A DNA stretch of 64,000 bases from an uncultured Phycisphaeraceae bacterium (lineage in GTDB: Bacteria > Planctomycetota > Phycisphaerae > UBA1845), in the NCBI GenBank assembly GCA_964569425.1, contig CAZMVD010000001.1:325-64324 (forward strand), given 5' to 3'. Each line of letters starts with the position of its first letter. Position 1 is the first letter of the stretch. The translations under genes were made by a program, and so were the position numbers. Below are positions 2,104 through 63,085 of this stretch, piece after piece. The notes beneath the pieces were generated by a model. The model worked only from the letters and a program-made list of their open reading frames with translations. It was not told where the DNA came from and did not search any database.

Positions 2104-2219
2104 GCTCCCTCATCCCCTTCGGACGAGGGCCTCGGGGGCACCCGCCCGCCAGGCGGGTTCCTGTGTTCGCTATGCTCGATTCGCTATTCGCCATTTGCCG
2201 CATCGCGGCGCTTCATTAC

Positions 2220-3362
2220 CTATCGGAGTTTGATGGTCGCCAAGGCCAGCCCTGCAAACATCGCCGCCACCAACCAGAAACGCACCACCGTTTGCGACTC
2301 CGTCCACCCCCCCAGATGAAAATGGTGATGCAGCGGCGCACATCGAAATATCCGGTGACCGCCCGTCCACTTGAAGTAGCCCACCTGGGCGATCACCGAC
2401 AGGGCCTCCACCACAAATACCCCTCCGGCGATCAGCAACATCAGCTCCTGCCGCGTGACCACGGCCACGAACCCGATGAGCCCCCCCAGCGGAAGCGAGC
2501 CCGTATCGCCCATGAACACTTTCGCGGGATGGCAGTTGTACCACAGAAAACCAAGCGTCGAACCGAGAATCGCTCCGCACACCACCACCAGCTCTCCGCT
2601 GCGCGGAACATGCGGCATCAGCAACTTGTGCGCAAGATCGGAGGTCCCCACAATGTAGGTCAGGATCAGAAACGCCGTAGCGCACATCGCCACACACCCC
2701 GAGGCCAGTCCGTCCATGCCGTCGGTCAGGTTGACGGCATTGGATGTTCCGGTCATCACCAGCACGGTCACGACCATGAAGCTGAACGCCCCCAATTGCA
2801 GGCCGGGCTTGTAAAAGGGAACGTTGAGTATCCGATAGGCCGGCACCTCGCCCGAATCGACCAGCGGACTGAGAACCGCAAGGTTGCTTTGGCCGTGCTG
2901 AAAGATGTAATAGCCCAGGACCACGCCCAGGCCGATCTGGAAAAGGAGCTTCTCGTAACTTCGGAGCCCGTCCCGCGAATAGCCCCGCCGCTTGCGCGTG
3001 AGCTTCAGCCAGTCGTCGATGGCGCCCAGCGCCCCGAGCCAGACCAGGCACACCAGCGCCATCTGTACATAGAAGCTGGAAATGTCCGCCAGCAGCAACA
3101 CCGCCAGCGCCATGGCCAGCAGAATCATCCCGCCGCCCATGGTCGGCACATTGGCCTTGTCGCGGGTGAGTTCATTGAGCGAGGCGTGGTCGAACTCGGG
3201 CTGGTCCCCCACCTTCCACCGAGTCAGCCGACGAATCGCAGCGGGAAGCAACAGCAGCATGAACAGAAAGCAGAACAGCGCCGCGAGCGTCCCGCGAAAC
3301 AATGGATTCTCGTAGGCGTAGTGCCGGCCGGCGAAGATTTCCTGCAGCAGAAGGTAGAGCAC
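2220..3362 (-). CDS. mraY: phospho-N-acetylmuramoyl-pentapeptide transferase MraY
   Basis: 380 aa. NAVNLTDGMDGLA, VFMGDTGSLPLGG and HHHFHLGGW motifs. Polytopic. Confidence 0.95.
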   Translation of the reverse strand: MLYLLLQEIFAGRHYAYENPLFRGTLAALFCFLFMLLLLPAAIRRLTRWKVGDQPEFDHASLNELTRDKANVPTMGGGMILLAMALAVLLLADISSFYVQMALVCLVWLGALGAIDDWLKLTRKRRGYSRDGLRSYEKLLFQIGLGVVLGYYIFQHGQSNLAVLSPLVDSGEVPAYRILNVPFYKPGLQLGAFSFMVVTVLVMTGTSNAVNLTDGMDGLASGCVAMCATAFLILTYIVGTSDLAHKLLMPHVPRSGELVVVCGAILGSTLGFLWYNCHPAKVFMGDTGSLPLGGLIGFVAVVTRQELMLLIAGGVFVVEALSVIAQVGYFKWTGGHRIFRCAPLHHHFHLGGWTESQTVVRFWLVAAMFAGLALATIKLR

Positions 3363-3396
3363 CGGCGGTCTTGGCCCCCCGAATCAGGTCCATCCC

Positions 3397-4797
3397 TCAG
3401 GCAACGGCCGCCCGGCACGGCTGATGGCGCCGCAGATAGTCCACGGTCCGATCGAGCTGCATCGCACGCGACCCCTTGAGCCATACCGTGTCGCCCGGCT
3501 GAATCCGCGACACGAGTACCTGAGCCGCGGCCTCGGCGTCGGCGCAACAGGCAAGTCGCTCCGGTTCTCCGGCGAAAACGTCGCGCGCCGCGCCGGCCGT
3601 CAGCGCCCCCACCGCAATCAGGCAATCCACCGGTGCCCGATGAACCTGTTGAACCACCCGACTGTGCCACTCCTCGGAACCGGGCCCCAACTCCAGCATG
3701 TCACCCAGCACGAACCACCGCCGACCGCCGCGCGCCAGCGAAAGCGCCTCAACGGCCGCGGAAACGCTCGAAGGGTTGGCGTTGTAGGTATCGTCGATCA
3801 CCGTGACATCGTCCCATTGAAACCGGCAGGTGCGCCCCGCCGCCGGCTCGAAGGTCCGCAACCGCTCGATGATGACCTCCGGCGGCAACCCGAACCACCG
3901 CCCCACGGCGAAAGCGGCCACGGCATTCGTCGCGTGGTGCTTGCCCGGCATGCACAGTTCCACGCGATGCCGCCCCTCCAATTCAAATGTCGTCCCCGTG
4001 ATCGTCGCCTCCGGTCGCTCCACGCGCAACCGCGCGCTGGCGCCGAATCCAAAGGTAACCAGCCGAACTCGCTGACGTCGCTCCAGGTAGGCCATCGTTC
4101 CGGCCCGATCAGTGTTGACCACGCCCAGCCCGTAGGGGTGAACATGATCGAGCAGCGACAGCTTCTCCGCCATCACGCCGCTCAACCCGCCAAGACCCTC
4201 CAGATGCGCCTCCCCGATGGATGTGATGACGCCTACCTGCGGCGCCGTCCAGCGCGCCAGCGCCGCCACCTCACCGGGATGATTACTTCCGATCTCAACA
4301 ACCAGGTAGCGATCGTCGGCTTCCGCGGATAGCAACGTCAGCGGTACACCGATGTGATTATTGAAACTCCTGGGGGACCCCCGCCCCTGTAACGCCCCGC
4401 CGAGCACGTGGTCGATCATCCGCTTCGTCGTGGTCTTGCCGTTGCTGCCGGTAACCGCCACGACGCAGGTGCCCACCGGCATGACGTGGTGGCGATACCA
4501 CGTCGCCAGGCGGCCCAGGGCGGCCGTGGTGTCGTCGACCGTCAGGGACGGCAGCGGCAATGGTCCGTAGGCCGCCGCCCCGACGCGATCGACCACGCAC
4601 GCCGCCGCACCGGCGGCCGCGGCCTGTTTGATAAACGCATGACCGTCGTGCGTCGGCCCGCGCAACGCAAAGAACAAATCGTCGGGCATGACGTCGCGCG
4701 AGTCGCTGCACACCCGCCGGACAATGGTCCCTTCGCCGCCGACCGAGTCATCCGGCTCCAGCCCCTTCACCAGTTGTGCCCAGCCAAGCGGAATCAT
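3397..4797 (-). CDS. murF: UDP-MurNAc-tripeptide--D-alanyl-D-alanine ligase MurF
   Basis: 466 aa. Mur-ligase P-loop AVTGSNGKTTTK. 4-nt overlap with the murE stop. Confidence 0.9.
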   Translation of the reverse strand: MIPLGWAQLVKGLEPDDSVGGEGTIVRRVCSDSRDVMPDDLFFALRGPTHDGHAFIKQAAAAGAAACVVDRVGAAAYGPLPLPSLTVDDTTAALGRLATWYRHHVMPVGTCVVAVTGSNGKTTTKRMIDHVLGGALQGRGSPRSFNNHIGVPLTLLSAEADDRYLVVEIGSNHPGEVAALARWTAPQVGVITSIGEAHLEGLGGLSGVMAEKLSLLDHVHPYGLGVVNTDRAGTMAYLERRQRVRLVTFGFGASARLRVERPEATITGTTFELEGRHRVELCMPGKHHATNAVAAFAVGRWFGLPPEVIIERLRTFEPAAGRTCRFQWDDVTVIDDTYNANPSSVSAAVEALSLARGGRRWFVLGDMLELGPGSEEWHSRVVQQVHRAPVDCLIAVGALTAGAARDVFAGEPERLACCADAEAAAQVLVSRIQPGDTVWLKGSRAMQLDRTVDYLRRHQPCRAAVA

Positions 4798-6359
4798 GGT
4801 AACTTCCCAGCGGAAACCGCGGAGGCATTCAGGTACTCCCGAGCCACCAGAACGTCATCAAAGTCCAGCGTCTTGCCTCCCACGAGCTGATAGTTCTCAT
4901 GCCCTTTGCCCGCGATCAGGACCGTATCACCCGGTCGCGCCTCGTCCAGGGCCACGGCAATGGCCGCCCGCCGGTCGGCCTCCACCAACACTCCAGCGCC
5001 ATTGGGCCGCGCAATCCCCTTAAGAATCTCGTCGATGATCGCGCGCGGGTCTTCGGTTCGAGGATTGTCACTGGTCACGATGGCCAGATCCGCCAGTTCC
5101 TCGACCACGCGCGCCATGCGCGGGCGCTTTGGACGATCGCGATCCCCGCCGCAGCCGAACACGCAAATCAGCCGTTCGCGCGTCACGGGTCGCAGCGCGG
5201 TCAGGACATTGCGCAAGGCATCGTCGGTATGAGCGTAATCCACGAAAACCGCAAAGGGACAACCGTCCGCATCTACGCGCTCCAGCCGACCGGGGACCCC
5301 TGCCAACCCCCTCAACCCGTCCACGATGGCACCTGGCTCAATACCCAGCCCCTCCGCCGTAGCCGCAGCCGCCAGCGCGTTCTGAACATTGTGGAGGCCC
5401 ACAAACGGACAGCACAGTTCCGCTTGCATCGTCCGCGACTCCAGCGTGAATCGCGTGTCCCGAATTCCCAGTTCGATCCTTTTCGCCTGCACCTGCGCGT
5501 GCGCCGCATCGATCCCGTAGAATATCACGGGCGCAACCGTCGACTCAGCCATATTCAGCGACTCCGGATCATCGCTATTCAACACGGCGACGGCACCGGT
5601 ATCGAGCGAAGCGAACAGGCGCCGCTTGGCCTTCGCGTAGGCAGCCATGTCTCCGTGATAATCCAGGTGATCGCCCGTCAGATTGGTGAACACCGCCGCA
5701 TCGAATCGAAGCCCATCGGTCCGGCGCTGGTCCAGCGCGTGCGATGAAACTTCCATCAGGGCGAAATCGGCACCGCCGGCGCGCGCTTCGGACAACATTC
5801 GGCAAAGGTCAATCGCCCCCGGAGTCGTCAGCGGCGCGCGCAGGGCACCTCCACCAAGATCGTATTCCACGGTCCCGATCAGTGCCGGGTGCCGCGCCGC
5901 GGCGCGCAAGATCGACCGCAACATCCAGGTCACCGTCGTCTTCCCGTTCGTGCCCGTAACGCCCACCAGCTTGAGCACGGGCCCCGTCGCGCCGCGCAGC
6001 CCATGGAACGCCGCCGCCAGTCGCGCCAGCGCCTCACGCGAATCACGCACCCGAACAAGGGCGACGTGTGGCGGAACCGATACGGTTTCTTCCGCCACGA
6101 CCGCCGCTGCGCCGGCGGCAATCGCCGCAGCCACGTATCGGTGGCCGTCGGCGCGCGTTCCGCGTACAGCGACGAAGCATCCACCCGGCCGGACCTGACG
6201 GGAGTCATCCGACAGTGACAAGACCTTGACATCTTCCCGGGGGGACATCCCGCCGCTCGGAACCCCGGCACGGGAAAGCAACTCGGAAAGATTCAGGGCG
6301 TCAGGCATCGTCGGGTGGCTCAGCATGTTCTTGACCGCCGCGGTATTGTACCGCATCAC
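4794..6359 (-). CDS. murE: UDP-MurNAc-L-Ala-D-Glu--2,6-diaminopimelate ligase MurE
   Basis: 521 aa. GVTGTNGKTT P-loop. DNPR motif (TSDNPRTEDP) typical of meso-DAP-adding MurE. The start could be an internal Met. Confidence 0.9.
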   Translation of the reverse strand: MMRYNTAAVKNMLSHPTMPDALNLSELLSRAGVPSGGMSPREDVKVLSLSDDSRQVRPGGCFVAVRGTRADGHRYVAAAIAAGAAAVVAEETVSVPPHVALVRVRDSREALARLAAAFHGLRGATGPVLKLVGVTGTNGKTTVTWMLRSILRAAARHPALIGTVEYDLGGGALRAPLTTPGAIDLCRMLSEARAGGADFALMEVSSHALDQRRTDGLRFDAAVFTNLTGDHLDYHGDMAAYAKAKRRLFASLDTGAVAVLNSDDPESLNMAESTVAPVIFYGIDAAHAQVQAKRIELGIRDTRFTLESRTMQAELCCPFVGLHNVQNALAAAATAEGLGIEPGAIVDGLRGLAGVPGRLERVDADGCPFAVFVDYAHTDDALRNVLTALRPVTRERLICVFGCGGDRDRPKRPRMARVVEELADLAIVTSDNPRTEDPRAIIDEILKGIARPNGAGVLVEADRRAAIAVALDEARPGDTVLIAGKGHENYQLVGGKTLDFDDVLVAREYLNASAVSAGKLP

Positions 6360-6485
6360 GCCGACCTGTCAGCCAGAGCCGTCGGCAATGCTCCGGGACT
6401 TTCGCCGGCAAACGCCGACCCGCCGCGCCAACCCGCAAGCCTGGCGGCCTATCACTGCGAATCGTGACGAAGCCGCCCGCCTTCC

Positions 6486-8243
6486 TTACCTGCCCAGCGC
6501 CACGGCATCGTCGCGCGGCACCTGCAAATAGGCCAGCGTGCCTTCCAGAATTCTGGCCACCGCCGGCGCCGCCACCTTGCCCCCATAATAGCCCTTGGAC
6601 GCCTGCGGACGCCGCACCATCACCAGCACCGCCACCCGCGGATCCGCCGCCGGCGCCGCCCCCAGAAAATTCGACAGGTACGCGCCGGCTTCATAGCCCT
6701 TGCGATCCGCATAGGTCAGTTTGGCCGTGCCCGACTTGCCCAGCACGCGGTAACCCTCCACCCGCGCCGCCGTGCCCGAGCCTTCCTCCACCACCCCCAC
6801 AAGCAGTTCCTCCGCTACGTAGCGCGCGACGTGCGACGGAATCACACGCCGTACCGCCTCCGGACGTTCGAACGACTCCACCACCTGACCATCCACGGTC
6901 AACAATCGCCGCACCAGCCGCGGCCGCATCAATACCCCATCGTTCACCAGGGCGCTGAACGCCGTCACCAGTTGCAGCGGCGTGATGTTAATCTCGTATC
7001 CGAACGACACCGATTGCGATGTGTAGGTGGACCACTTGCGCAGGTCCACCACCATCCCCGGAGCCTCCCCCGGGTACTCAATACCCGTGCGTTCGCCAAA
7101 CCCGAACCCTCGTACCGTTTCCCACAGGGACTCCTTGCCCATACGCTCGCCGATCAGCGTCATCCCGATATTGCTGCTCTTGGCGATAATCCCCGCCAGC
7201 GTCATCATCCCGTGCGGATGGGTGTCGCGAATGGTGCGCCGCCCGACCCGATACGTGCCCTGACGGCAATCCAGCTTTTCCGTAGGCGAAACATGCCCGC
7301 CGGCCAGCGCGCCACTGGCGATGAATGCCTTGATGGTGCTTCCCGGCTCGAGCGGATCCGTCACCGCGCGATTCCGCCGCTGGTTCGCGTCCGCCGGCGC
7401 GCCCCGGTTGGGGTCGAACGAAGGCAGGTTGGCCAGCGCCAGAATCTCGCCCGTGGCCGGCTCCATTACAATCGCCACACCGCTTTCCGCGTCATAGTTC
7501 CTCAACGTATCGCCCAGCGCCGCTTCAGTGATCCGTTGGATTTCCGCATCAATGGTCAGCACCACGTGCCCGCCGTCGCGCGGGAGTTCCAACCCACCTT
7601 CCGCCCGCCACAGCGCCCGCCGCCGGGCATCGTGAATGGTGGATCGCCGCCCGTCGCGCCCGGATAGGTGCGCATCGAACGCCAGCTCAATGCCTTCCTG
7701 TCCGTGTCCGTCACGCCCCACCAGACCGACTACCTGGGCCAGCGATTCACGCAGCGGATATGTCCGTACGGCGGAATCCGTCAACCCGACCGCGGCGTGT
7801 CCCATTTGCCTCACCGCCTCCGCGGTGACCTCATCAACTCGCTGGGCCACCACGACGTAGCGCGAATGACTCCGCTGCCGAATCCTATCGCGCAGTTCCC
7901 CCGGCGACTGATTCAACCGCGGCGCCAGAATGTCCACGAATGCATCCAGGTCATTGACCAGCGACGGGTCCACAAAAACGTCGGGGATGGGATGGCTGGC
8001 AGCCACCACGCGCTCACGGCGATCGAGCACCATCCCGCGCACCGCGGGAATCGTCGCCAGACCGGACTGCTGTCGCTCGGCGATGCGCATCAACTCCGGG
8101 CGAAGCGACGAATTGATGTACGCGACCCGCCCCGCCAATCCCACGAAGACCGCAGCCAACAGGATCAGCAGTCCTGCGCCGCTGCGCTTCTGCCATGGTT
8201 CCAGGGGATGGTTTGCGCAAGACATGCGGCGACTTTCCTGCAC
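6486..8243 (-). CDS. ftsI: class B penicillin-binding protein / peptidoglycan D,D-transpeptidase FtsI
   Basis: 585 aa. N-terminal TM (GLLILLAAVFVGLAG). SxxK = STIK, SxN = SSN, KSG = KSGTA. Confidence 0.85.
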   Translation of the reverse strand: MQESRRMSCANHPLEPWQKRSGAGLLILLAAVFVGLAGRVAYINSSLRPELMRIAERQQSGLATIPAVRGMVLDRRERVVAASHPIPDVFVDPSLVNDLDAFVDILAPRLNQSPGELRDRIRQRSHSRYVVVAQRVDEVTAEAVRQMGHAAVGLTDSAVRTYPLRESLAQVVGLVGRDGHGQEGIELAFDAHLSGRDGRRSTIHDARRRALWRAEGGLELPRDGGHVVLTIDAEIQRITEAALGDTLRNYDAESGVAIVMEPATGEILALANLPSFDPNRGAPADANQRRNRAVTDPLEPGSTIKAFIASGALAGGHVSPTEKLDCRQGTYRVGRRTIRDTHPHGMMTLAGIIAKSSNIGMTLIGERMGKESLWETVRGFGFGERTGIEYPGEAPGMVVDLRKWSTYTSQSVSFGYEINITPLQLVTAFSALVNDGVLMRPRLVRRLLTVDGQVVESFERPEAVRRVIPSHVARYVAEELLVGVVEEGSGTAARVEGYRVLGKSGTAKLTYADRKGYEAGAYLSNFLGAAPAADPRVAVLVMVRRPQASKGYYGGKVAAPAVARILEGTLAYLQVPRDDAVALGR

Positions 8244-25557: not shown

Positions 25558-27216
25558 TCACGGCGCGGGCGGAATACTCATCGCCCGCGCGTAGGCCGCA
25601 AAGTCCTTCAGGTCCACGACCCAGTTGCCGTCCACGTCGACCGCACGACACGTTTCGCTCGCCGGTCCGATGCCTGGACCTGACCAGCATTCGCTAAACG
25701 CCATGAAATCGCCCAACGTTACTGCTGAATCGCAGTCGTGGTTTCCGGGAAGCAGTTGGCGGAACACCTGCGCACGACCGGCGTGAGAAGCACTGCCGTT
25801 CGCCCACGTTGGCGCTCCGACGACAATGTCCATCAGACCATCCCCGTCCACGTCCCCCGCCCCGGCCACGCTGGTGCCGAACGAACCGGGACTCGCGTTC
25901 CCGGTCCGCGCGAACAGTACTTCTCCCGTGGCGCCCGAAAACACGTACGCCTTGCCCGACATGTATCCGGGATAGCCGGAATAGGCATAACCGCCGACGA
26001 GCACGTCCGGCACGCCGTCCCCGTTCACGTCCCCCGGCCCCGCCACCGAATATCCGAAAAAGCTCCGTTCGGCTTCCAAGGTGTAAAGGCGAGTGGCGTC
26101 GGGCCCGCGGAACACATACGCCTGGCCATATCCGTTTCCGGGGTACTCCCCCCCGGCCTCATGAGCGCCCACCACCATGTCGTCGTACCCGTCGCCGTTG
26201 ATGTCACCCAAGCCCGCCACCGAGCGCCCAAAAACGTCAATGACCCATAGCGCCTCGGAATCTACGTGCGTCAGCAGTTCGCCGGTCACTCCCGACAACA
26301 CCTTCACGTACGCGCGCCAGTCCAGTCCGTTCGGCGCCCCGGCCACCACGTCGAGGATGCCATCGCCGTTGAAATCGCCCGCACCGGACACCGAAACGCC
26401 AAACCGGTCGTTCACGTAGTCGCCCACGTGGGTCCACAGCAGTTCCCCCGTCCGCCCCGAGAAGGCGTGGACTTGTCCCGGCACCGTCTGCAGGTGCGAG
26501 TTGAGTCCCGGCTCGCCCACCAGCAGATCGGGGACTCCGTCGCCGTCCAGGTCGCCCGGCCCCGCCACGCTCTCGCCGAACCTCCCGTTGCGGTAACTCC
26601 CGTCCCACGTCCAGATCGTTTCGCCCGTGGCCCCGGAATAGACGTACACCCGACCGGACCGCGTCACGGGCCCCGAGTAGACGTCCGCGCCCACGATGAC
26701 GTCGGGCACGCCATCCCCGTCCACGTCCCCCGCCCCCGCCGCCGCGGAGGCGTACGCCCCGCCCTGCCCGAACCAGCAGCGGAGCGCTTCGCCGGTAGCG
26801 CCCGAGTGGACGCACAACCGACCACGGTGCTGCGTGTTCGGTACCACGTACCCGACCGTTCCAATGAACACATCGTCACAGCCGTCGCCGTTCAAGTCAC
26901 CGACGCCGCCAACCGAGATGCCGACATACTCATATCCCCCGCTTCCATCGAACGTGTACAGCAACGGGCAGGACGCCTGTAAGATTGCCGAAGTATCGTC
27001 CGCCACACCGGCCGGAATGTGCCCGAACCATCCAGGAAGCGCGTTGCCATCAAACGTGAATTCCGCCGGGGACCAGATCGCCCCTTCCGCACCCGCGCCT
27101 GCCAGACCAACAACAATGACGGCGCAAATGCCCCAACGAACTGTGTGCCACGGCATTTGCGCGCAGAGTTTCCCCGCCGACTGCCGCATGACCGTTGACT
27201 CCCCGCGGTCCCACAT
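25558..27216 (-). CDS. secreted FG-GAP (integrin-alpha-like) beta-propeller protein with a dockerin-like C-terminal module
   Basis: Seven Ca-loop motifs: GDLNGDGCDD, GDVDGDGVPD, GDLDGDGVPD, GDFNGDGILD, GDINGDGYDD, GDVNGDGVPD, GDVDGDGLMD, each preceded by FG.SV.G. Signal/TM near the N-terminus. Confidence 0.85.
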   Translation of the reverse strand: MWDRGESTVMRQSAGKLCAQMPWHTVRWGICAVIVVGLAGAGAEGAIWSPAEFTFDGNALPGWFGHIPAGVADDTSAILQASCPLLYTFDGSGGYEYVGISVGGVGDLNGDGCDDVFIGTVGYVVPNTQHRGRLCVHSGATGEALRCWFGQGGAYASAAAGAGDVDGDGVPDVIVGADVYSGPVTRSGRVYVYSGATGETIWTWDGSYRNGRFGESVAGPGDLDGDGVPDLLVGEPGLNSHLQTVPGQVHAFSGRTGELLWTHVGDYVNDRFGVSVSGAGDFNGDGILDVVAGAPNGLDWRAYVKVLSGVTGELLTHVDSEALWVIDVFGRSVAGLGDINGDGYDDMVVGAHEAGGEYPGNGYGQAYVFRGPDATRLYTLEAERSFFGYSVAGPGDVNGDGVPDVLVGGYAYSGYPGYMSGKAYVFSGATGEVLFARTGNASPGSFGTSVAGAGDVDGDGLMDIVVGAPTWANGSASHAGRAQVFRQLLPGNHDCDSAVTLGDFMAFSECWSGPGIGPASETCRAVDVDGNWVVDLKDFAAYARAMSIPPAP

Positions 27217-43110: not shown

Positions 43111-45681
43111 ATGCCGGTGCGCGTGCGGTTCGGCCGGCTGATGGGCCGGGGCTTCCAGCAGCGAAGAGAGGATCACGTATTGAACAGTTCACTTGCGGCG
43201 CAACTGATGCGTTGTACCTGGGTCGCTTCATTGGCCGTGGTGGCCTTCGACGGTGCCGCGTGGGCCAAACCAGGCCCGGACGCAAAGCGAAACCGGGCGA
43301 CCTTGGAATGGGCAGCGAACGTCGATGCGGTCGCACCCGGTCACACTTTCGACGTGGCGCTGCGCTTCCGCATCGACGAAGATTGGCACATCTATTGGCA
43401 GAATGCCGGTGACGCCGGGTTGGCCCCGCGGGTAACGTGGACACTGCCGGAGGGGTTTACGGAAGGCGAGCTTCGCTTCCCCGTGCCCAAGCGACATGTC
43501 GATGCATCCGGCACCATTGTCACCAACGTCTTATACGACGAGCCGGTGCTACTGACCACGATCACGCCGCCCAATCGCCTGAGCGGTTCAACGGTCGCCC
43601 TGAAGGCACGCGTAACCTATCTGGTTTGCAAGGAGTCCTGTCTTCAGGAGCGCGCCGAGCTTGATATGACCCTGCCCGTGCGCGCTTCAGCCGATTCCGT
43701 GAATCCGGCCAATGTGAAGCTGTTTGAAACCGCCCGTCGAGCGCTGCCTCGTCTTGAAAGCAAGTACGTCAAGCTCCATCCGACACTCAGCGTCGAGGTC
43801 CTTAAACCCGGTACGGCATTCGATCTGCAATTGGAAGTCGAGGTGGCCGAGGGCCATCACATCCAATCGCATGAGCCCCTGTTGGAGGCGTTCGTCAAGG
43901 CGGATCTCTTTCTTGAGAAAGTCGACGGCCTTTTCTTCAATCCGCCTCGGTTCCCTGAACCCGAATTCAAGGAAATCCCCGTCCTGGGAAGGATCAGCGA
44001 ATACTCGGGCAAGTTCACCGTGCGTGTGCCCGTTCAGGCCGAGGAACTCCCCAAAGAAGTAACCTCGCTTCGATTGGGTGGTGTGTTTACCTATCAGGCC
44101 TGTACCGATAAGGGCATGTGCTTCCCGCCCGATGCTGTGGCATTCAAGCTGTCAGCGCCTGTCGCTGGCCCACATCTGGGCGCCGGGAACCAGACCCGTC
44201 CCACGGATGCCGGTGTCGTCAACGAAGACGTCGGCGAGGTCGAAGTGGACGAGGCTTCGCGCGAAGCCGGCGCGTTCCTGCCGGTCGACGCCGGCGGGGG
44301 TTCAACCATCCAAACGGGAATACCGACGTCACTGGTCGGGCTGTTGGCCTTTGCGTTCCTGGGCGGACTCATCTTGAACGTGATGCCGTGCGTCCTGCCG
44401 GTGATTTCCATCAAGGTGCTCAGCTTCGTCCAGCAATCTCAGGAGGAGCCACGGCGTGTCTTTCGACTGGGGTTGACCTTTTGCGCCGGCATCCTCTGCT
44501 CCTTCTGGGCGCTGGCCCTGGTCATCATCGCGCTCAAGTCGGCGGGCAACCAGCTGGGTTGGGGGTTTCAGTTTCAATCGCCGATGTTTGTCATTGTCAT
44601 GATGTCGATCATGTTCGTCTTTGGATTAAGCCTGCTGGGCGTGTTCGAAATCACACTGCCCGGCGCGGCCATGACTACCCTGTCAGCCGCAGAAGAACAC
44701 GAAGGCTATTTCGGAGCTTTTTCCAAAGGCGTGTTAGGGACCATTCTGGCGACGCCCTGCACGGCGCCGTTCCTGGGACCCGCGCTCGGCGTTGCATTCG
44801 CCAGCACCAACGTACAACTGTTTGCGGTCTTTACATTCGTCGGCTTGGGCATGGCCTCGCCGTTTTTCCTGTTGACCTGGCGCCCCGCCTGGCTGAAGTA
44901 TTTGCCCCGTCCCGGAGTGTGGATGGCCCATTTCAAGCAGCTCATGGGCTTTTTCCTCATGGGCACCGTCGTTTGGATGCTCTATGTCCTCGGCCACCAG
45001 ATCGGCTCCGACGGCGTGGTCTGGTCGGTCGGCTTCCTCGGGTTCCTGGCCATCGCCGCGTGGATTCTGGGATTGCAGACGCCGGCCACTCCGTTGCAGC
45101 GCCGCTTGGTCGCATGGGCCGTAGCGATGGTCTTCGTCGCCGGCGGTTGGTGGACCGCATTCCAGCGCGAGTCCACGTTAGCCGAATACCAGCAGCTCTA
45201 CCTGGCGAGCTTGGAATGCCCTTGCGACCTCGAAGCCCCCATGCTCACCGCGGCCGATTGGAATCAGAAGATACCGTGGCAGGCCTGGCAAAAAGGCCGG
45301 GCAGAACGGCTCGCGGCACAGGGTTACACGGTGTATGTGGATTATACCGCGGTCTGGTGCGTGACCTGCCTGGCCAACAAGGCCGCAACTGTAGATACGG
45401 ACGAGGTGCGGGCATTAATGGCCAGCAACTGCGTCATCCCATTGAAGGCTGATTTTACGAGCGAGAATCCGGACATTCTCGAAGAGATCCTGCGCTTTGA
45501 TCGATCAGGCGTCCCCCTCAACATCATCTACCCGGCCAGTCGACCCGCTGAACCCATTCTCATGCCCGAGCAACTTGTGGGCCGAAAGGGATTGGTGTTG
45601 GAGCAATTGGCCAAGGCGGGCCCCTCATTGGCCTGTGCCAGCGGGAAGGCAGCTACAACCACGGCGTTACTTAGCCCCTGA
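43111..45681 (+). CDS. DsbD-family thiol:disulfide interchange / cytochrome c biogenesis-type transmembrane reductant transporter
   Basis: N-terminal DsbD-alpha-like periplasmic domain (two copies). Central TM core NVMPCVLPVISIKV and ATPCTAPFLG. C-terminal thioredoxin-like domain with WCVTC. The true start is probably downstream (signal MRCTWVASLAVVAFDGAAWA). Confidence 0.8.
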   Translation: MPVRVRFGRLMGRGFQQRREDHVLNSSLAAQLMRCTWVASLAVVAFDGAAWAKPGPDAKRNRATLEWAANVDAVAPGHTFDVALRFRIDEDWHIYWQNAGDAGLAPRVTWTLPEGFTEGELRFPVPKRHVDASGTIVTNVLYDEPVLLTTITPPNRLSGSTVALKARVTYLVCKESCLQERAELDMTLPVRASADSVNPANVKLFETARRALPRLESKYVKLHPTLSVEVLKPGTAFDLQLEVEVAEGHHIQSHEPLLEAFVKADLFLEKVDGLFFNPPRFPEPEFKEIPVLGRISEYSGKFTVRVPVQAEELPKEVTSLRLGGVFTYQACTDKGMCFPPDAVAFKLSAPVAGPHLGAGNQTRPTDAGVVNEDVGEVEVDEASREAGAFLPVDAGGGSTIQTGIPTSLVGLLAFAFLGGLILNVMPCVLPVISIKVLSFVQQSQEEPRRVFRLGLTFCAGILCSFWALALVIIALKSAGNQLGWGFQFQSPMFVIVMMSIMFVFGLSLLGVFEITLPGAAMTTLSAAEEHEGYFGAFSKGVLGTILATPCTAPFLGPALGVAFASTNVQLFAVFTFVGLGMASPFFLLTWRPAWLKYLPRPGVWMAHFKQLMGFFLMGTVVWMLYVLGHQIGSDGVVWSVGFLGFLAIAAWILGLQTPATPLQRRLVAWAVAMVFVAGGWWTAFQRESTLAEYQQLYLASLECPCDLEAPMLTAADWNQKIPWQAWQKGRAERLAAQGYTVYVDYTAVWCVTCLANKAATVDTDEVRALMASNCVIPLKADFTSENPDILEEILRFDRSGVPLNIIYPASRPAEPILMPEQLVGRKGLVLEQLAKAGPSLACASGKAATTTALLSP

Positions 45682-57990: not shown

Positions 57991-60132
57991 CTACGCAACC
58001 TGCGGCCGGTTGCCGAAGTAGAGCTTGGCCCCGACCAGCAATAGCAGTGCCAGAATCGCCACGCCCCACTCTGACATGGTGGGGATCGCATCCACGCAGC
58101 CGGGAGCGAAGAGGTTGTCATCCAGCCCCGGACACATATCGACGCAATCGAGCACGCCGTCGCCGTCGGAATCGGCACCGTCCGAAACGCCGCACCCACA
58201 GATCCCCGGATCGGTCTTTTCCGGATCCTCGGGGCAGCCGTCGTTGCAGTCCGGCGTGCCGTCGCCGTCGGTGTCGTCATCCGCAGTTCCGCAGCCACAG
58301 ATGCCCGGAGAGGTCTTGTTGGGGTCGAACGGGCAGCTGTCCGCGCAATCGGCGGCACCGTCGCCGTCGCTGTCGGTATCGGGCACGCCGCACCCACACT
58401 GACCGGGCGCGTCCTTGGTGGAATCGCCCGGACAGGCATCGCACTCATCACGCGTGCCGTCGCCGTCGGTATCGTCCGGGCCGGCGCAATCGCGCGGGTC
58501 CAGAAGCTGGTTGATTCCCAGGAATTGGCCCCCAAGCTGCTGGCATTCCTGCTGACGAATCTCGTCGCACCCGCCATCCGGCAGGCAGCACGGCCCGATC
58601 GGCGTCGTGCACACGCTCACGATGAAGTCCGACACCAACGGCGCAGGGAACTGTCCGTAGCGCCACTCGCCGGTGCATTGCGCGCTGCGGTCCTGAAGCA
58701 CGAACACGGGACCCGGGTTACCCGGGGCGAACAGATCATCCAGCCCGCCGCTGCCGATGGTGCGCGGGCCTTCCGCGATCTCCGCGCCGGCGTTGCGTAC
58801 CGAGGTTTTGTAGACGATGTAGAAATCTACTCCGTTACCGGCCGGATCCTTGGGCAGGATGATCCCCGTCGGCTGCCCGAACGCCGGAGCGCAAGTCGAC
58901 ACCGGAAACGTATCCGGCGCTGTTGGTAAACCGGGGAATGTACATTGCGTTCCCGGAATCGGCGCCAGCGGCAATCCGAAGTTCGGACCCGGATTGGGGT
59001 CCACCGACCACAACTCGGTGGTCAACGTCCAATTACCCGCAACGGGAAAGCCCGGCAGGTTGCGGCTGCGAACCAGAATATCATAACTGATGAGATTTCG
59101 TCCCGCGTGATCGGAAAGCGTGATATCGTCCCCCACCAGGAAGTCCGCCGACCAGCACGGATTCTCAACCGGATCCTGCGGGAAGTACGCCGCCTGACTG
59201 TGCGTCGGCTGGGAATACGAAGTGCACGGATTGGGGTCGTCGCAAGCATTCGTAACTTCATTGCATGTCTGCACCGCGTGGCACGGATCGCCGGTGTGCG
59301 AACACAGTCCGCTCTGCAGGTTGCAAAACTCCGTCCCGTTGCAGAATTCCTCATCATCCGGGCATTGCGCGTCCATGGTGCAACCGGAGCATGTGTTGTT
59401 GTCCTCGTTGCAGAAGGGCGTGGCGCCGGTGCAGGGCGATTGGCCGGCGATGCACTGGCCGTTGGGTCCGCAGGTCTCCACGCCGTTGCAGTACAACCCG
59501 TCATCGCAGTCCGAACCGTCAACGCACGGCCCAAAGTAATCTACCCGAAAAGCGCCGCCGGATCCGCTGTAGCCATCGACGATCAGAAAGTACGTCGTGC
59601 CGGCCGTCAGATTGGTCGTCAATCGCGCCTTGAACGGCGAGCCGCAGTTGTCGCAACTGTCGTCATCCTGAGCAACGCAAGCCGATCCCGGACAGCTTCC
59701 TCCGCTTCGCAGTTGCAGCGCGGTGTCAAACACCGTGGCGTCGTTGCACGTCGAAAAAGTCCACGAACCTGTCGCACTCGCGGTAAACTCGACGATGCCG
59801 TCAAAAGAATTGCCACCGTAGAATCCGCACGGCGCACCGCAGCCCGGCGCAGCGCCGAAACTGTTCGCCAGGTCGGCCACACTGCCCGCAAAACTTCCCA
59901 CGCCGGGCAACGTACCTAACTGAAACGCAGGGCAGTTGTTGGCAATCTCCCCTGCCAGGCGAACGGATTGCGTCACCACGCGGGTCGAACCCGGACGGTT
60001 GGCCCCGGCATTGTCACGAACAGTGGATGCCGTGCGGATAATCTCAACCGTCGGGTCGGCTCCCACGGCTGCACACATGAAAGCAACCGCAGCCAACGCC
60101 GCAAACGCAGTGGAAATTCTTCGATTGAACAT
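57991..60132 (-). CDS. large secreted Cys-rich protein with thrombospondin-type-3-like Ca-binding repeats and an IPTL-CTERM-like tail
   Basis: Start at ATG 60132, preceded by GGAGGAAAGAGGG. Signal MFNRRISTAFAALAAVAFMCAAVGA. CNG-x-E-x-C Cys-rich repeats. C-terminus IPTMSEWGVAILALLLLVGAKLYFGNRPQVA. Confidence 0.8.
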   Translation of the reverse strand: MFNRRISTAFAALAAVAFMCAAVGADPTVEIIRTASTVRDNAGANRPGSTRVVTQSVRLAGEIANNCPAFQLGTLPGVGSFAGSVADLANSFGAAPGCGAPCGFYGGNSFDGIVEFTASATGSWTFSTCNDATVFDTALQLRSGGSCPGSACVAQDDDSCDNCGSPFKARLTTNLTAGTTYFLIVDGYSGSGGAFRVDYFGPCVDGSDCDDGLYCNGVETCGPNGQCIAGQSPCTGATPFCNEDNNTCSGCTMDAQCPDDEEFCNGTEFCNLQSGLCSHTGDPCHAVQTCNEVTNACDDPNPCTSYSQPTHSQAAYFPQDPVENPCWSADFLVGDDITLSDHAGRNLISYDILVRSRNLPGFPVAGNWTLTTELWSVDPNPGPNFGLPLAPIPGTQCTFPGLPTAPDTFPVSTCAPAFGQPTGIILPKDPAGNGVDFYIVYKTSVRNAGAEIAEGPRTIGSGGLDDLFAPGNPGPVFVLQDRSAQCTGEWRYGQFPAPLVSDFIVSVCTTPIGPCCLPDGGCDEIRQQECQQLGGQFLGINQLLDPRDCAGPDDTDGDGTRDECDACPGDSTKDAPGQCGCGVPDTDSDGDGAADCADSCPFDPNKTSPGICGCGTADDDTDGDGTPDCNDGCPEDPEKTDPGICGCGVSDGADSDGDGVLDCVDMCPGLDDNLFAPGCVDAIPTMSEWGVAILALLLLVGAKLYFGNRPQVA
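58120..58473 (-). repeat. about 3.5 protein-level repeats of about 33 aa, D-x-D-x-DG-x-x-DC-x-D-x-CP-x-DP-x-KT-x-PG-x-CGCG (TSP type-3-like)
   Basis: DTDGDGTRDECDACPGDSTKDAPGQCGCGVP / DTDSDGDGAADCADSCPFDPNKTSPGICGCGTA / DDDTDGDGTPDCNDGCPEDPEKTDPGICGCGVS / DGADSDGDGVLDCVDMCPG. Confidence 0.6.
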
Positions 60133-60844
60133 GGCTAACCCTCTTTCCTCCTCGGAATTAACATTGGCGATGTACGCCGACCCGCCCAGCTCGGCGCTTT
60201 GAATTTCGCCCCTTCTTGCCCCGGCGACTGAAATCGATATCCCCCGGAGCCCAGCGCGGTCCCCCAATCGACCCCGTGGGTAATGCGTGAAACAAACTGC
60301 GCGACCACCCCTATTCTATCGCCGAAATCAGCCGCAACAATGCGAAAAACACGCTCCTGATGTTATCGGTATTGCCGCCCGGAATCAAGGGTTACCCCGC
60401 TGGAAACGTCTCATAATCGCACCAGATGCGACGTTTGAATCACTGGACTGGTCGAAGTCTGGCGTTTCTTGCAGCAAGTAAACAAGTTGTTGTGAACCAC
60501 CGCACCCACGAAGGAAACACACGCAATGGTACGCCCCGCAAAGTCAGAAGTGCTCGCAACCGTCAAACGGCAATTCGATAGCAAAGGGAGCGTGGGACAA
60601 TTCCGGAACTTCGCCGCACGACGCCAAGGACAAAGCTCTAGATCACGAGCTGCAGCAATTGAAGGAAACGTACGCTGACCGACCCCGAATCGCGTCGACA
60701 ACCAGGCAAAGCCCCGGCGCATTCGTCGTGCGACGCCAGCGATTCCCTGCTCTTAGACCGCTCTCCAGCGTCGCCCGATGGCCCAAGATCAAGCGGCCAA
60801 CGGAAACTCCGCCCACTTCAGAATACATTCCGCGAGATTGCGTC

Positions 60845-63085
60845 CTAGAGCGCCACTTCTTCCCGGCGACCGAAGTACATCTTGCCGGCCACCATCAACA
60901 ACAACGCCAGAATGAGCATTCCCCATTGAGACATCGTCGGAATCTCACCGGGACACTGGCACGCCGGAATACACTGGCCACCCGGACCGCAATCAGCATC
61001 GCTCTCGCAGTGCGAAGCGGTATCGCAGCAGACCAGGATGCCGAAAGTCGCATCGTCCACACCGGGGCAATTGTCGCACTGGTCGTCGACGCCATCACCG
61101 TCACTATCCCCGAGGCAAATGGACCCGGGCCCCAGGTGCGAACCACCCAAGTTGGTACAAGTGCCTTCCAGCACATCGACGATACAGCTCTTATCAGCCA
61201 GGCAACACGCCCCGCAAAGTTGATTGTCGGGGTGCGTGCAGTTGCCGGAGCCGTCGCAGATGTCGTTGGTGCATTCGTCACCGTCGTCGGTGCAGTCCGC
61301 TCCCGCGGCGGCGAATCCGTTGGCCGGACAGTCGACGTCCGCACCCGTACAGAACTCATCCACGTCGCACTCGTCCACCGCTGGGCGACAAACCGTGGTA
61401 TCCGGCTCCAGCGCGTCGGGCGGACAATCAGCGTCGCTTCCCGTGCAGAATTCGGCCACGTCGCAGACCCCCGCCGCCGCCCGGCACTCGGTCGTATCCG
61501 GTTCGAAACCGTCGGCCGGGCAATCCACGCCTACCCCGTCGCAGAACTCCGCAATGTCGCAAACGCCGGCAGCCATGCGGCACTCCGTAGTGTTCGGCTC
61601 GACGGCATCCGGCGGACAATCGGCATCGTTGCCCGTGCAGAATTCGGCGATGTCGCAAACGCCCGCCGAAGCGCGACACTCCGTAGTGTTGGGCTCAAAA
61701 CCATCCGACGGACAATCCGCACTGTTGCCGGTGCAGAACTCGGCCACGTCGCACACGCCCGCCGACGCACGGCATTCAGTGGTATCCGGCAGGAAGACAT
61801 CAGGCGGGCAATCCGGGTTCACGCCGTCACAGAACTCTGCCACGTCGCAGTCGCCCGCCGCCGCACGGCACTCTATCCCCGCAGGGACCGGATTGGCCAC
61901 GCAATTCCCGAAGCCGTCGCACACGTCCGGCTGGTCGCAAACCCCCTGCGGCGTCTGGTTGCCGCACGGCGTGCCCGCCAGGGCATCCTGATACACGCAG
62001 CCGAGCACCGGATCGCAGGTGTCGATCGTGCACTCGTTGCCGTCGTCGCACGCCGCGTCGTCCGGCGTGTATACACAACCGATCATTGAATCGCAGGTGT
62101 CGACCGTGCAATCCACGCCGTCATCGCACACCACGGGATCGTAGAAACAGCCGCTGGCCGGGTTGCAGTCGTCGATCGTGCAGGCGTCATTGTCGTCGCA
62201 GTCGATATCGGCCGTCTGGCAACCAAGCACCGGGTCGCAGAAATCATCCGTGCACTCGTTCTTGTCGTCGCAGATGATCAAGACGTTCTCGCAGAACCCG
62301 TTGACGCACGAATCCTCGGTGCACTCGTTGTCGTCGTCACAATCCCCGTCCACGAAACAGCCCCGTACTTCGATCTGAATGACCAGATCGTTGAAATCAC
62401 GATCCGCCGCCAATCCCTGATTCGCCGGATGCGTGTTGTCGCCCAACGGACCGTTCAGGTCTTCCCAGAAGAGCGCCCATACTTTGTAGGTCGGAGGAAT
62501 ACCCGGCGCGCCGATGATCTCGTACGTCACCATGTGATCCAGCAAGTCGCTGTTCATCAACGGGTCGGAATAATGCACATTGGTCAGCGAAACGTCGGAA
62601 TCGTTGGCCCGCGCCCAAACCCAGGTCGAACCCGGCGTAAAGGTCACCATTCCCGACCCGGTCGCCGCAAACCCCGTCCCCGTCACTTCAAACATCTTGA
62701 CGAAGCCAAGTCCGTCATCGTAGCCGAACTCCTGCGGAAAGCCCGCAAACCGCGCCTCGACGCTGGCCGTAGTCGAACCATCGGTCCACACGTCGTCGTC
62801 CGCCGTACCGGGTGCACCGGTCAGCATGTTAAGCAACGCCACGAACCCGTCGTCATCGACGCGCGTCGCCGTCGTCACGCCGTTGCTGTATTGAGTGCTG
62901 AACCCGTTGGGCAGCGGCGCTCCCGTGGCCACAAAGGTACCGCCATAGATACCATCGAGAAGCGCGGCATGGCCGGGCTCGGGTGTCGTAAAAATCGTCG
63001 TGTAGCCGCCCAGCGCGGGAAGGGCAAACGTCAGCAAGCCCGTGACGTAACTCAAGGACAGGACAGCGCGCTTTGAAGAATTCAT
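60845..63085 (-). CDS. large secreted Cys-rich protein with a DUF4114-like N-terminal region, CDDxNxCT repeats, tandem disintegrin-like modules and an IPTL-CTERM-like tail
   Basis: RBS GGAAGGAG 7 nt before the ATG. Signal MNSSKRAVLSLSYVTGLLTFALPALG. DRDFNDLVIQIE. C-terminus IPTMSQWGMLILALLLMVAGKMYFGRREEVAL. Confidence 0.85.
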   Translation of the reverse strand: MNSSKRAVLSLSYVTGLLTFALPALGGYTTIFTTPEPGHAALLDGIYGGTFVATGAPLPNGFSTQYSNGVTTATRVDDDGFVALLNMLTGAPGTADDDVWTDGSTTASVEARFAGFPQEFGYDDGLGFVKMFEVTGTGFAATGSGMVTFTPGSTWVWARANDSDVSLTNVHYSDPLMNSDLLDHMVTYEIIGAPGIPPTYKVWALFWEDLNGPLGDNTHPANQGLAADRDFNDLVIQIEVRGCFVDGDCDDDNECTEDSCVNGFCENVLIICDDKNECTDDFCDPVLGCQTADIDCDDNDACTIDDCNPASGCFYDPVVCDDGVDCTVDTCDSMIGCVYTPDDAACDDGNECTIDTCDPVLGCVYQDALAGTPCGNQTPQGVCDQPDVCDGFGNCVANPVPAGIECRAAAGDCDVAEFCDGVNPDCPPDVFLPDTTECRASAGVCDVAEFCTGNSADCPSDGFEPNTTECRASAGVCDIAEFCTGNDADCPPDAVEPNTTECRMAAGVCDIAEFCDGVGVDCPADGFEPDTTECRAAAGVCDVAEFCTGSDADCPPDALEPDTTVCRPAVDECDVDEFCTGADVDCPANGFAAAGADCTDDGDECTNDICDGSGNCTHPDNQLCGACCLADKSCIVDVLEGTCTNLGGSHLGPGSICLGDSDGDGVDDQCDNCPGVDDATFGILVCCDTASHCESDADCGPGGQCIPACQCPGEIPTMSQWGMLILALLLMVAGKMYFGRREEVAL
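61295..61870 (-). repeat. six tandem 96-bp (32-aa) coding repeats, CR-x4-x-CD-[VI]-x-EFC-x-G-x3-DCP-x-[DN]
   Basis: CRAAAGDCDVAEFCDGVNPDCPPDVFLPDTTE / CRASAGVCDVAEFCTGNSADCPSDGFEPNTTE / CRASAGVCDIAEFCTGNDADCPPDAVEPNTTE / CRMAAGVCDIAEFCDGVGVDCPADGFEPDTTE / CRAAAGVCDVAEFCTGSDADCPPDALEPDTTV / CRPAVDECDVDEFCTGADVDCPANGFAAAGAD. Confidence 0.85.
61991..62359 (-). repeat. five protein-level repeats of about 24 aa, C-D-D-x-[ND]-x-C-T-x-D-x-C-x4-G-C
   Basis: DCDDDNECTEDSCVNGFC / ICDDKNECTDDFCDPVLGC / DCDDNDACTIDDCNPASGC / VCDDGVDCTVDTCDSMIGC / ACDDGNECTIDTCDPVLGC. Confidence 0.6.

Follow-up and report, generated by a model that had tools for sequence, protein, structure and literature searches.

The disintegrin-like domain is usually seen as a hallmark of animal ADAM proteins and snake venoms, and the presence of several consecutive copies of a part of it in a bacterial protein raises the question of what these copies are and what they may do. 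We address this question for a stretch of 64,000 nucleotides (hereafter the window) from an uncultured Phycisphaeraceae bacterium of the phylum Planctomycetota (assembly GCA_964569425.1, contig CAZMVD010000001.1, positions 325 to 64,324). According to the listing of open reading frames (ORFs) and its translation, an ORF on the minus strand of the window (60845-63085) encodes a protein of 746 amino acids (aa) with 68 cysteines, and the identical protein is also present in NCBI-derived data, on a 110-kb contig. Its middle part is an array of 32-aa units, which our analyses support as being truly homologous to the C-terminal hairpin in the disintegrin-like domain found in ADAMs and in P-III snake venom metalloproteinases (SVMPs).

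Repeat units and the selection acting on them

A regular expression, CR-x5-CD-x2-EFC-x-G-x4-CP-x-[DN], matches the protein six times, with matches starting at aa 406, 438, 470, 502, 534 and 566. The period is exactly 32 aa, and together with their 8-aa linkers units 1-6 occupy nucleotides 61870 down to 61295. An earlier note on this DNA, made from the letters alone, had placed six 32-aa units at 61295-61870 with one degenerate unit upstream of them, and this holds to the exact coordinate. The cysteine pattern given there also recurs six times, except that it ended in D, while the final residue of the pattern in unit 6 is N. As about ten fixed positions are matched six times in register, chance is excluded, and the motif was found in no other reading frame of the 64-kb window. 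The degenerate unit (unit 0) carries the motif CD-x2-D-x-C-x-G-x3-C-x2-N, which has (X)3 in place of (X)4, and its loop is one residue shorter.

At the nucleotide level the array is a diverged tandem repeat (Tandem Repeats Finder: period 96, 5.5 copies, 72% matches, score 396), with 59-82% identity between units. Pairwise Nei-Gojobori comparisons of the units gave pS values of 0.47-0.85, which are saturated, pN values of 0.09-0.33, and dN/dS ratios of 0.07-0.30 where dS could be computed. The units are thus old duplicates held by purifying selection, in agreement with the view of the earlier note that they are individually constrained; recent replication slippage is ruled out by the saturated synonymous sites.

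Homology to the disintegrin-like hairpin

The cysteine framework of the units had been likened to that of the C-terminal half of disintegrin domains, and three independent tests bear this out: a Pfam search, a search of the Protein Data Bank (PDB) sequences with a profile of the unit, and comparison of a predicted structure with known ones. In the first of these, the Pfam family PF00200 (Disintegrin) scores 86.4 bits against a gathering threshold of 35.1 (E 2.3e-24) in six stretches, each of which covers only about positions 46-75 of the 75 profile positions, that is, the C-terminal hairpin. Full coverage of the 75 positions, including the N-terminal Cys-rich half, is not reached by the 746-aa protein; units 0 and 1 together align to positions 29-75 with 33.4 bits, which alone is below the threshold. 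Reprolysin and ADAM_CR have no match in the protein in Pfam even at E up to 10, so that of the two models proposed for checking the likeness, Disintegrin and ADAM_CR, the former is found above its threshold and the latter has no counterpart here.

The unit profile consisted of 32 columns and was built from 101 units of the 746-aa protein and its relatives. Its best matches are P-III SVMPs, with atragin at E 6e-11 and catrocollastatin and bothropasin at 1.5e-10, and it also matches AaHIV, ecarin, RVV-X, K-like, ADAM22 (about 4e-7) and VAP1 (2e-6), whereas RGD disintegrins are reached only at E about 1e-4. The unit consensus, vCRaaagvCDvaEtCtGssaaCPaDaf, is about 60% identical to atragin over 31 residues without a gap. 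Unit 6 aligns with ecarin residue by residue, and its DECD loop is that of many ADAMs and SVMPs.

An AlphaFold2 model of the array (aa 366-625), built with 120 homologues, has a mean predicted local distance difference test score (pLDDT) of 90.5 overall and of about 98 within units 1-6; its predicted template modelling score (pTM) is 0.70. The start of the model is weaker, with mean pLDDT values of 49, 54, 67 and 86 for model residues 1-10, 11-20, 21-30 and 31-40; unit 0, corresponding to model residues 9-40, falls into this part. When the model was compared with PDB by Foldseek, the top 40 matches were all SVMP, ADAM or disintegrin chains (probability up to 1.0), including P-III SVMPs, ADAM10, ADAM17, ADAM22 and venom disintegrins. 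On whole short disintegrins the alignments span 52-54 columns of the array model, gaps included, with a target template modelling (TM) score of 0.56-0.62.

The units have in common with ADAMs and also with P-III SVMPs the spacing CR-x5-CD-x2-E-x-C-x-G-x4-CP-x-[DN], the extra cysteine of the xCD loop and an exact calcium site III (see below); chains of these proteins are also the top fold matches, at marginal E values. In contrast, the bacterial protein has no Ds subdomain (which holds Ca2+ site II), no N-terminal half of the Da subdomain, no Cw/Ch region (ADAM_CR) and no M12B protease. ADAMs carry the hairpin once; here it recurs six to seven times at a period of 32 aa, and relatives have as many as 61 copies.

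The calcium site and the loop

In the Da ('arm') subdomain that ADAMs and also P-III SVMPs have, Ca2+ site III follows the consensus CD(X)2(E/D)XCXG(X)4C(X)2(D/N) (PMC4885070). Units 1-6 all fit this consensus exactly, and it occurs 599 times in the 120 closest homologues. When 2,497 distinct internal units from relatives were compared, the residues at the three positions proposed as ligands were D in 100%, E/D in 99% and D/N in 99%, and Arg2, Gly16 and Pro22 are each conserved in at least 98%. The loop between the first two cysteines of these units is likewise of low entropy and made of small residues (A/P-A/S-A-G-x).

The earlier note had laid stress on this loop as the place of an integrin-recognition tripeptide, which proved misleading: what is conserved is the xCD spacing together with site III, and the loop itself is small and conserved. 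In the 746-aa protein the loops read AGDCD (one unit), AGVCD (four units) and VDECD (unit 6), all with the ADAM spacing CR-x5-CD and the extra cysteine, and no RGD, KGD, MLD or like tripeptide is found in the six units. Across the family, only 4 of 3,875 units contain RGD or KGD. The (D/S)xCD loop of ADAMs packs on the Cw subdomain via the Cys468-Cys499 disulfide and is inaccessible to integrins, EDTA fails to strip the site III Ca2+ from ADAM22, where the ion is permanently buried, and most RGD disintegrins have lost the Ca2+ ligand residues (PMC4885070). The bacterial units have the hairpin scaffold in common with RGD disintegrins such as trimestatin (1J2L), echistatin (6LSQ) and acostatin (3C05), which the unit profile finds at the E value given above, but they have one more loop residue and an extra cysteine, keep the Ca2+ ligands and are without RGD or KGD. 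Judged from these sequences, the conserved feature resembles the buried, Ca2+-loaded xCD hairpin of ADAMs and not an integrin loop, and nothing in them suggests that the bacterial units bind integrins.

Size and distribution of the repeat family

There is nothing exceptional in this array: it belongs to a repeat family that is very large, mainly found in bacteria and uncharacterised. A word-indexed search with the repeat region, in which 8,000 candidates were scored, gave at least 1,085 matches; all 120 of the matches listed were already tagged PF00200, some of them being named 'cysteine-rich repeat protein' (JGI). An exhaustive phmmer search with the six-unit region against 1.84 billion cluster representatives returned 4,583 proteins at E up to 1e-3, of which 1,560 at E up to 1e-30, the longest of them reaching 5,486 aa. 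When the bacterial and archaeal species-representative genomes of GTDB were scanned with a three-unit alignment (A3), at least 565 stretches were confirmed; taxa (from the record titles) and units were counted for the best 79 loci. All 79 carry bacterial names, from about eight phyla: Myxococcota (32), 'Deltaproteobacteria' (19), Binatia (10), Acidobacteriota (4), Planctomycetota or Phycisphaerae (3), Thermodesulfobacteriota (3), Proteobacteria (3), unclassified (2), and one each from Nitrospirales, Limnocylindria and Cytophagales. The ORFs at these loci have between 3 and 61 units each. The longest array seen, with 61 units, belongs to a metagenome-assembled genome (MAG) of Candidatus Binatia (L076), in an ORF at 30-6533 of at least 2,168 aa whose 5' end is open. 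In the homologues, the spacing of units is 32 aa in 304 cases and 30 aa in 77.

Among full-length relatives, 38 out of 38 have Disintegrin in Pfam. Besides it they contain propellers of the FG-GAP and Kelch types, TSP3, LamG, PKD and DUF11, and some of the relatives end in IPTL-CTERM, MYXO-CTERM-like or PEP-CTERM tags. A comparison in layout comes from a Phycisphaerales MAG chromosome (CP070827, L002), with an ORF that is 61% identical and has the same C-terminal layout.

Two protists also have such arrays. The transcriptome of the malawimonad Gefionella okellyi gave two matches with 10-unit arrays, where contamination from prey bacteria is possible. The amoebozoan Arcella intermedia has a protein (A0A6B2KXD9, P0216) in which a reprolysin-like M12B domain (HEIGHNFGLSHD) is joined to 15 hairpin units, of 32 aa like those described here; the zinc motif HExxHxxGxxHD was found among the relatives in this protein only. 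While the Arcella protein has its protease at the N-terminus and is ADAM-like, the 746-aa protein has a lectin-like head and no protease. The layout of the Arcella protein is an ADAM-like one outside animals and fungi.

Pfam and UniProt already label such proteins automatically, for example as 'Disintegrin domain-containing protein'. In a full-text literature search we found no published description of bacterial disintegrin-type arrays; the sole mention found was a Pfam domain count in the genome paper of Minicystis rosea. The statement of the earlier note that no characterised bacterial array was known therefore agrees with the literature search, but the array itself is not unusual, since thousands of such proteins carry the automatic Disintegrin label. 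The distribution, which the earlier note had proposed to map, is wide, with at least 4,583 cluster representatives, mainly from bacteria of several phyla and including the two protists.

Architecture of the whole protein

From the N- to the C-terminus, the protein consists of a predicted signal peptide, a head assigned to DUF4114 through its homologues, five CTDC modules, unit 0 and units 1-6, which are followed by a CTDC-like cap, another Cys-rich module, a TSP3-like segment and an IPTL-CTERM signal (Table 1). The start methionine is kept among homologues, and in the region of the predicted signal peptide aa 8-18 form a helix with low pLDDT in the AlphaFold model.

Table 1. Features of the gene for the 746-aa protein and of its neighbour, in window coordinates
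Feature	Positions	Strand	Residues and sequence	Basis and remarks
Whole gene	60845..63085	-	746 aa	Predicted to be secreted, C-terminally anchored and Cys-rich
Signal peptide, predicted	63005..63085	-	aa 1-~27, MNSSKRAVLSLSYVTGLLTFALPALGG	Basic n-region and hydrophobic stretch, read from sequence
DUF4114 head, predicted LecB/PA-IIL-like Ca2+-dependent lectin fold	62363..63004	-		Homologues, AlphaFold, Foldseek
Five Dictyostelium-type CTDC Cys modules, C-DD-x-N-x-CT-x-D-x-C...GC, with leading Cys C243	61967..62359	-		Pfam PF00526
Unit 0, degenerate	61871..61966	-	aa 374-405, CGNQTPQGVCDQPDVCDGFGNCVANPVPAGIE	Four Cys, near site-III motif
Unit 1 and linker	61775..61870	-	aa 406-437, CRAAAGDCDVAEFCDGVNPDCPPD	Exact site III fit; pLDDT 93-98
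Unit 2 and linker	61679..61774	-	aa 438-469, CRASAGVCDVAEFCTGNSADCPSD	Best Pfam Disintegrin stretch, aa 432-461 against profile positions 46-75
Unit 3 and linker	61583..61678	-	aa 470-501, CRASAGVCDIAEFCTGNDADCPPD	Motif, site III fit, model
Unit 4 and linker	61487..61582	-	aa 502-533, CRMAAGVCDIAEFCDGVGVDCPAD	Motif, site III fit, model
Unit 5 and linker	61391..61486	-	aa 534-565, CRAAAGVCDVAEFCTGSDADCPPD	Motif, site III fit, model
Unit 6 and linker	61295..61390	-	aa 566-597, CRPAVDECDVDEFCTGADVDCPAN	Most ADAM-like, DECD loop
CTDC-like cap	61217..61294	-	aa 598-623, CTDDGDECTNDICDGSGNCTH	Translation, module alignment
Cys-rich module CGACC..D.SC...GG.H.G...C, then TSP3-like segment	61061..61216	-	DSDGDGVDDQCDNCPG	Read from sequence
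IPTL-CTERM sorting/anchor signal and stop codon	60845..60946	-		EIPTMSQWG, hydrophobic helix, basic tail
Adjacent gene, second IPTL-CTERM Cys-rich protein, predicted to be at the surface	57991..60267	-	758 aa	Without disintegrin-like units

The head (about aa 28-241) is predicted to be a Ca2+-dependent sugar-binding domain of LecB-like fold. Among 36 homologues of the head, 26 carry PF13448 (DUF4114), and those with organism names are from Phycisphaerae or Planctomycetota. Its AlphaFold model (pLDDT 90, pTM 0.86) has as its top 20 Foldseek matches in PDB the lectins LecB, RS-IIL, CV-IIL and BclA as well as thrombocorticin; the LecB/PA-IIL, RS-IIL and CV-IIL entries have a probability of 1.0 and a target TM score of 0.62-0.69, and the BclA/BC2L-A entries a probability of 0.97-1.0 and a target TM score of 0.48-0.65, while the probabilities start at 0.85 when the thrombocorticin entries are counted with them. 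The link to LecB is by fold comparison only, as the sequence of the head has no match in PDB at E up to 10. The conserved DRDFNDLV of the head can be set beside DNDYNDAV of the Ca2+/sugar loop of LecB (D-x-D-[FY]-N-D), a weak likeness with an hhalign probability of 15%. DUF4114 has been linked to LecB-type lectins and to Ca2+-dependent function in PilY1.1 of Myxococcus (PMC9109919), and it is the mannose-binding domain of Acanthamoeba MBP-1, in which a DUF4114 head is followed by Cys-rich repeats and a transmembrane helix (PMC11934332).

The modules between the head and the array (aa 243-373) match PF00526 (Dicty_CTDC) with 79.7 bits against a gathering threshold of 27, the best stretch being aa 346-364; this match concerns the modules upstream of the array and not the 32-aa units. 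Like the hairpin units, CTDC modules and the repeats of DUF4215 / TIGR02232 are short extracellular repeats with four cysteines, and they co-occur with hairpin units, which nevertheless belong to neither family. As hairpin units and CTDC modules both hold CD..[NE].CT, we considered that they might be variants of one repeat, which was rejected (hhalign probability 0.7%). The Myxococcus cysteine-rich repeat (TIGR02232 / DUF4215) has no match in the 746-aa protein in Pfam or NCBIfam at E up to 10. The Cys-rich module that follows the cap corresponds to no Pfam family and is also found in the adjoining gene and in the Phycisphaerales ORF of L002. The C-terminal motif, EIPTMSQWG...GRREEVAL, scores 23.1 bits with NCBIfam TIGR04174 (IPTL-CTERM) against a cut-off of 20.5.

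A predicted calcium- and disulfide-stabilised stalk

We consider it probable, for the reading as a whole, that the repeated ADAM-type hairpins serve as a rigid spacer, stabilised by Ca2+ and disulfides, between the lectin-like head and the IPTL-CTERM anchor. The hairpin is the part of the Da subdomain with the xCD loop and site III; here it would have been detached from the remainder of the domain and multiplied in tandem. Each unit would hold one buried Ca2+ through the Asp after the second cysteine, the Glu three residues later and the Asp or Asn after Cys-Pro-x, and would be stapled by two disulfides. Together with the five CTDC modules, the array may form a stiff, protease-resistant rod that separates the N-terminal, putatively sugar-binding DUF4114 head from the C-terminal anchor. 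The protein would then be a stalked surface lectin or adhesin, in which the disintegrin-like units act as a spacer and not as ligand-binding loops. In the relatives, too, the arrays of 3-61 units sit between globular modules (FG-GAP, Kelch, LamG, PKD, TSP3).

By its layout, the best functional analogue of the whole protein would be AcMBP-1 of Acanthamoeba, in which a DUF4114 head at the N-terminus is likewise followed by many Cys-rich repeats and then by a C-terminal anchor in the membrane (PMC11934332). AcMBP-1 is eukaryotic and is anchored by a transmembrane helix with a cytosolic tail, whereas the 746-aa protein has IPTL-CTERM; the likeness concerns the layout.

The analyses, all of them computational, establish the homology, the fit to the site III consensus, the purifying selection, a confident prediction of the repeat structure and the order of domains; occupancy by Ca2+, stiffness, the role as a stalk, sugar binding by the head and anchoring at the surface are inferred. 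Several points weigh against the stalk. The spacer function is argued from architecture, and arrays of up to 61 units could act in adhesion, in lattice formation or in Ca2+-dependent folding during export. The predicted Ca2+ binding is carried over from a sequence consensus of another domain context. The Foldseek scores of the array are marginal (best E 1e-3, query TM about 0.2), as is to be anticipated for a straight array, which cannot be superposed on the C-shaped arm of ADAMs. The PF13448 score of the head itself is 17.9 against a threshold of 27. At the other end of the protein, Pfam PF18203 (IPTL-CTERM) scores 20.5 against 20.8, which is 0.3 bits short, and a demonstrated sorting mechanism for the IPTL-CTERM tag was not found. 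Finally, the unit is without the N-terminal half of the disintegrin domain and without the Cw subdomain; in ADAMs these parts partner two of the unit's four cysteines, so that the disulfide map of the units must differ.

What this map may be was approached by a census of cysteines. Of 665 units, 648 have all four, and among 2,642 internal units none of the four is missing in 2,635. The rare variants are single losses, so an analysis of co-loss gave no pairing signal. In arrays of at least three units, the distance from the first cysteine of the array to the nearest cysteine upstream of the first unit is 9-13 residues in 198 of 217 cases (about 91%), and only one or two credible arrays have no such upstream cap; in protein P0102 the cap is a single cysteine at -12, the place of the fourth cysteine of a preceding unit. 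At the other end, the commonest array ending in relatives (207 of 287) has a cysteine 12 residues past the final cysteine of the last unit, where the first cysteine of a next unit would stand, and the commonest continuation is C-x5-C-x5-C-x4-C. Sixteen array-ending units have no cysteine in the following 30 residues. Clusters of cysteines that end with a unit have an odd number of cysteines in 10 of 11 cases, or in 8 of 9 if two possibly frameshifted ones are left aside. The Cys-rich region of the 746-aa protein similarly starts with an extra cysteine, C243, ahead of the first CTDC module.

The odd counts together with C243 suggest that disulfides are staggered between modules, and with 68 cysteines in total all of them can be paired. 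With a to d for the four cysteines of a unit, a staggered chain from unit to unit, either by bonds of the kind d(n-1)-c(n) or by those of the kind b(n)-c(n+1), is plausible. The xCD cysteine of ADAMs bonds to the next subdomain, Cw (PMC4885070). As an alternative, the disulfides may lie within the unit (a-d/b-c), yet the census argues against fully self-contained units. In disintegrins, as seen in the map of trimestatin, the third cysteine of the hairpin is bonded to a cysteine 25 residues upstream.

Other explanations for the array

The units might instead be recognition modules, in effect bacterial 'disintegrins' that show their loops to receptors on prey, host or neighbouring cells in a multivalent adhesion, as venom disintegrins bind integrins through the equivalent hairpin (PMC4885070). 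Arrays are found in predatory or social bacteria (Myxococcota) and beside propellers of the integrin-alpha type (FG-GAP), and position 7, just before the second cysteine, is among the more variable ones (3.0 bits), as this explanation would have it. Positions 3-6 of the loop, however, are rich in A/S/A/G and conserved across phyla, which is the opposite of a diversifying loop, and RGD/KGD is as rare as described above. Moreover, the ADAM-type extra cysteine is present in all units, in ADAMs such a loop is buried against the next module, and the 746-aa protein already has a dedicated lectin-like head, so that we regard recognition by the units as unlikely. Slightly less likely again is a device for Ca2+-dependent folding or assembly, in which folding outside the cell drives or rectifies export, or in which the arrays associate laterally or homophilically like cadherins and RTX proteins. 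No export system is encoded beside the gene in the window, and the site III Ca2+ of ADAM22, being permanently buried, offers no switch (PMC4885070); such a device would nevertheless suit the presence of a predicted Ca2+ site in every 32 aa, at ligand positions conserved to 99-100%, the very long arrays of up to 61 units, and the odd cysteine number of the unit-ended clusters (10 of 11), by which one thiol that may be reactive is left over. It does not so much exclude the stalk as overlap with it.

It is very improbable that the likeness to disintegrins is a convergence of short Cys-rich motifs, or that the gene is a eukaryotic contaminant or an insignificant recent transfer. The unit is only 32 aa long, Cys-rich motifs do recur by convergence, and the global Foldseek scores are weak, but convergence would have to account for a match to P-III SVMPs in which about 60% of 31 residues are identical without a gap (E 6e-11) and for relatives in which the match is carried into the N-terminal half of the domain. 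Eukaryotic contamination is ruled out by genomic context and bacterial distribution: the gene lies on a segment of bacterial chromosome with 63% GC and with genes of the division and cell wall (dcw) cluster, and the family has at least 565 stretches in bacterial and archaeal genomes, the best 79 of which all have bacterial names.

A possible origin of the ADAM disintegrin domain

A segment of the pattern CG[ND]G..E..GE.CD...CC..C.F...G.. stands before the first unit of an array in 21 of 385 relatives, and such heads yield compact domains of about 60 aa, which Pfam aligns to positions of about 23-75 of Disintegrin. The first part of the compact domains is a weak match to DUF4215. The 746-aa protein has no CGNG head; its unit 0 begins with CGN but is shorter. 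With the pattern CGNG..E..GE.CD...CC..C.F...G..CR...CD..E.C.G....CP.D, the compact domains (L009, L010, L020, L047, P0115, P0270 and others) resemble complete miniature disintegrins, and their first part resembles the Myxococcus Cys-rich repeat as well as the motif of ADAM Ca2+ site II. Their C-x-F-x3-G-x2-CR spacing is one that we take to be that of trimestatin and echistatin.

We tentatively raise the possibility, which we hold to be doubtful, that the eukaryotic ADAM disintegrin domain was assembled from a CGNG..GE.CD module of the DUF4215 kind and the hairpin, the hairpin being autonomous and ancient and its arrays being covalently daisy-chained rods. The bacterial compact domains and the Arcella protein with M12B and an array would then be surviving intermediates, and each unit would hold a buried Ca2+ and be disulfide-linked to its neighbour, generalising the bond of ADAMs between xCD and the next module.

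Genomic surroundings

The only related neighbour of the gene is the second IPTL-CTERM protein at 57991-60267; no sorting enzyme, protease or other operon partner was found near the gene. The product of this neighbour has TSP3-like repeats and Cys modules of the C-x-D-G-x-x-CNG type, and it has in common with the 746-aa protein and with the L002 orthologue a CC..DG.C...GG.F..G module without a Pfam family. The remaining neighbours are housekeeping genes (FtsW, Mur ligases, a penicillin-binding protein, an aminoacyl-tRNA synthetase, a Na+/H+ exchanger). A dcw run on the minus strand at 775-8243 includes FtsW/RodA, two Mur ligases and a class B penicillin-binding protein, which marks the window as an ordinary piece of chromosome (63% GC) from a bacterium of planctomycete type that makes peptidoglycan.

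Two further genes of the window may be mentioned. At 43111-45681 (plus strand) lies a gene whose 856-aa product is DsbD-like, a thiol:disulfide interchange protein with DsbD_N, DsbD_TM and thioredoxin-like parts, 15 kb from the two very Cys-rich proteins predicted to be secreted; this is a matter of neighbourhood. A separate and distant gene at 25558-27216 (minus strand) encodes a 552-aa FG-GAP protein, that is, a propeller of the integrin-alpha type. In 4 of 38 relatives, such propellers and hairpin arrays are parts of one protein.

Implications

In thousands of proteins, most of them bacterial and some from two protists, the hairpin with its predicted Ca2+ site occurs on its own in tandem copies, which offers a handle on the origin of the disintegrin domain of ADAMs. 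As a predicted Ca2+- and disulfide-stabilised stalk module of giant bacterial surface proteins, it would be of a new kind and might find use as a rigid spacer in protein engineering. For annotators there is a warning in these results, as a bacterial protein labelled 'Disintegrin' need not bind integrins. For the gene itself they suggest a function, namely that of a stalked surface lectin in a Phycisphaerae-type planctomycete, which would parallel the mannose-binding adhesin of Acanthamoeba.

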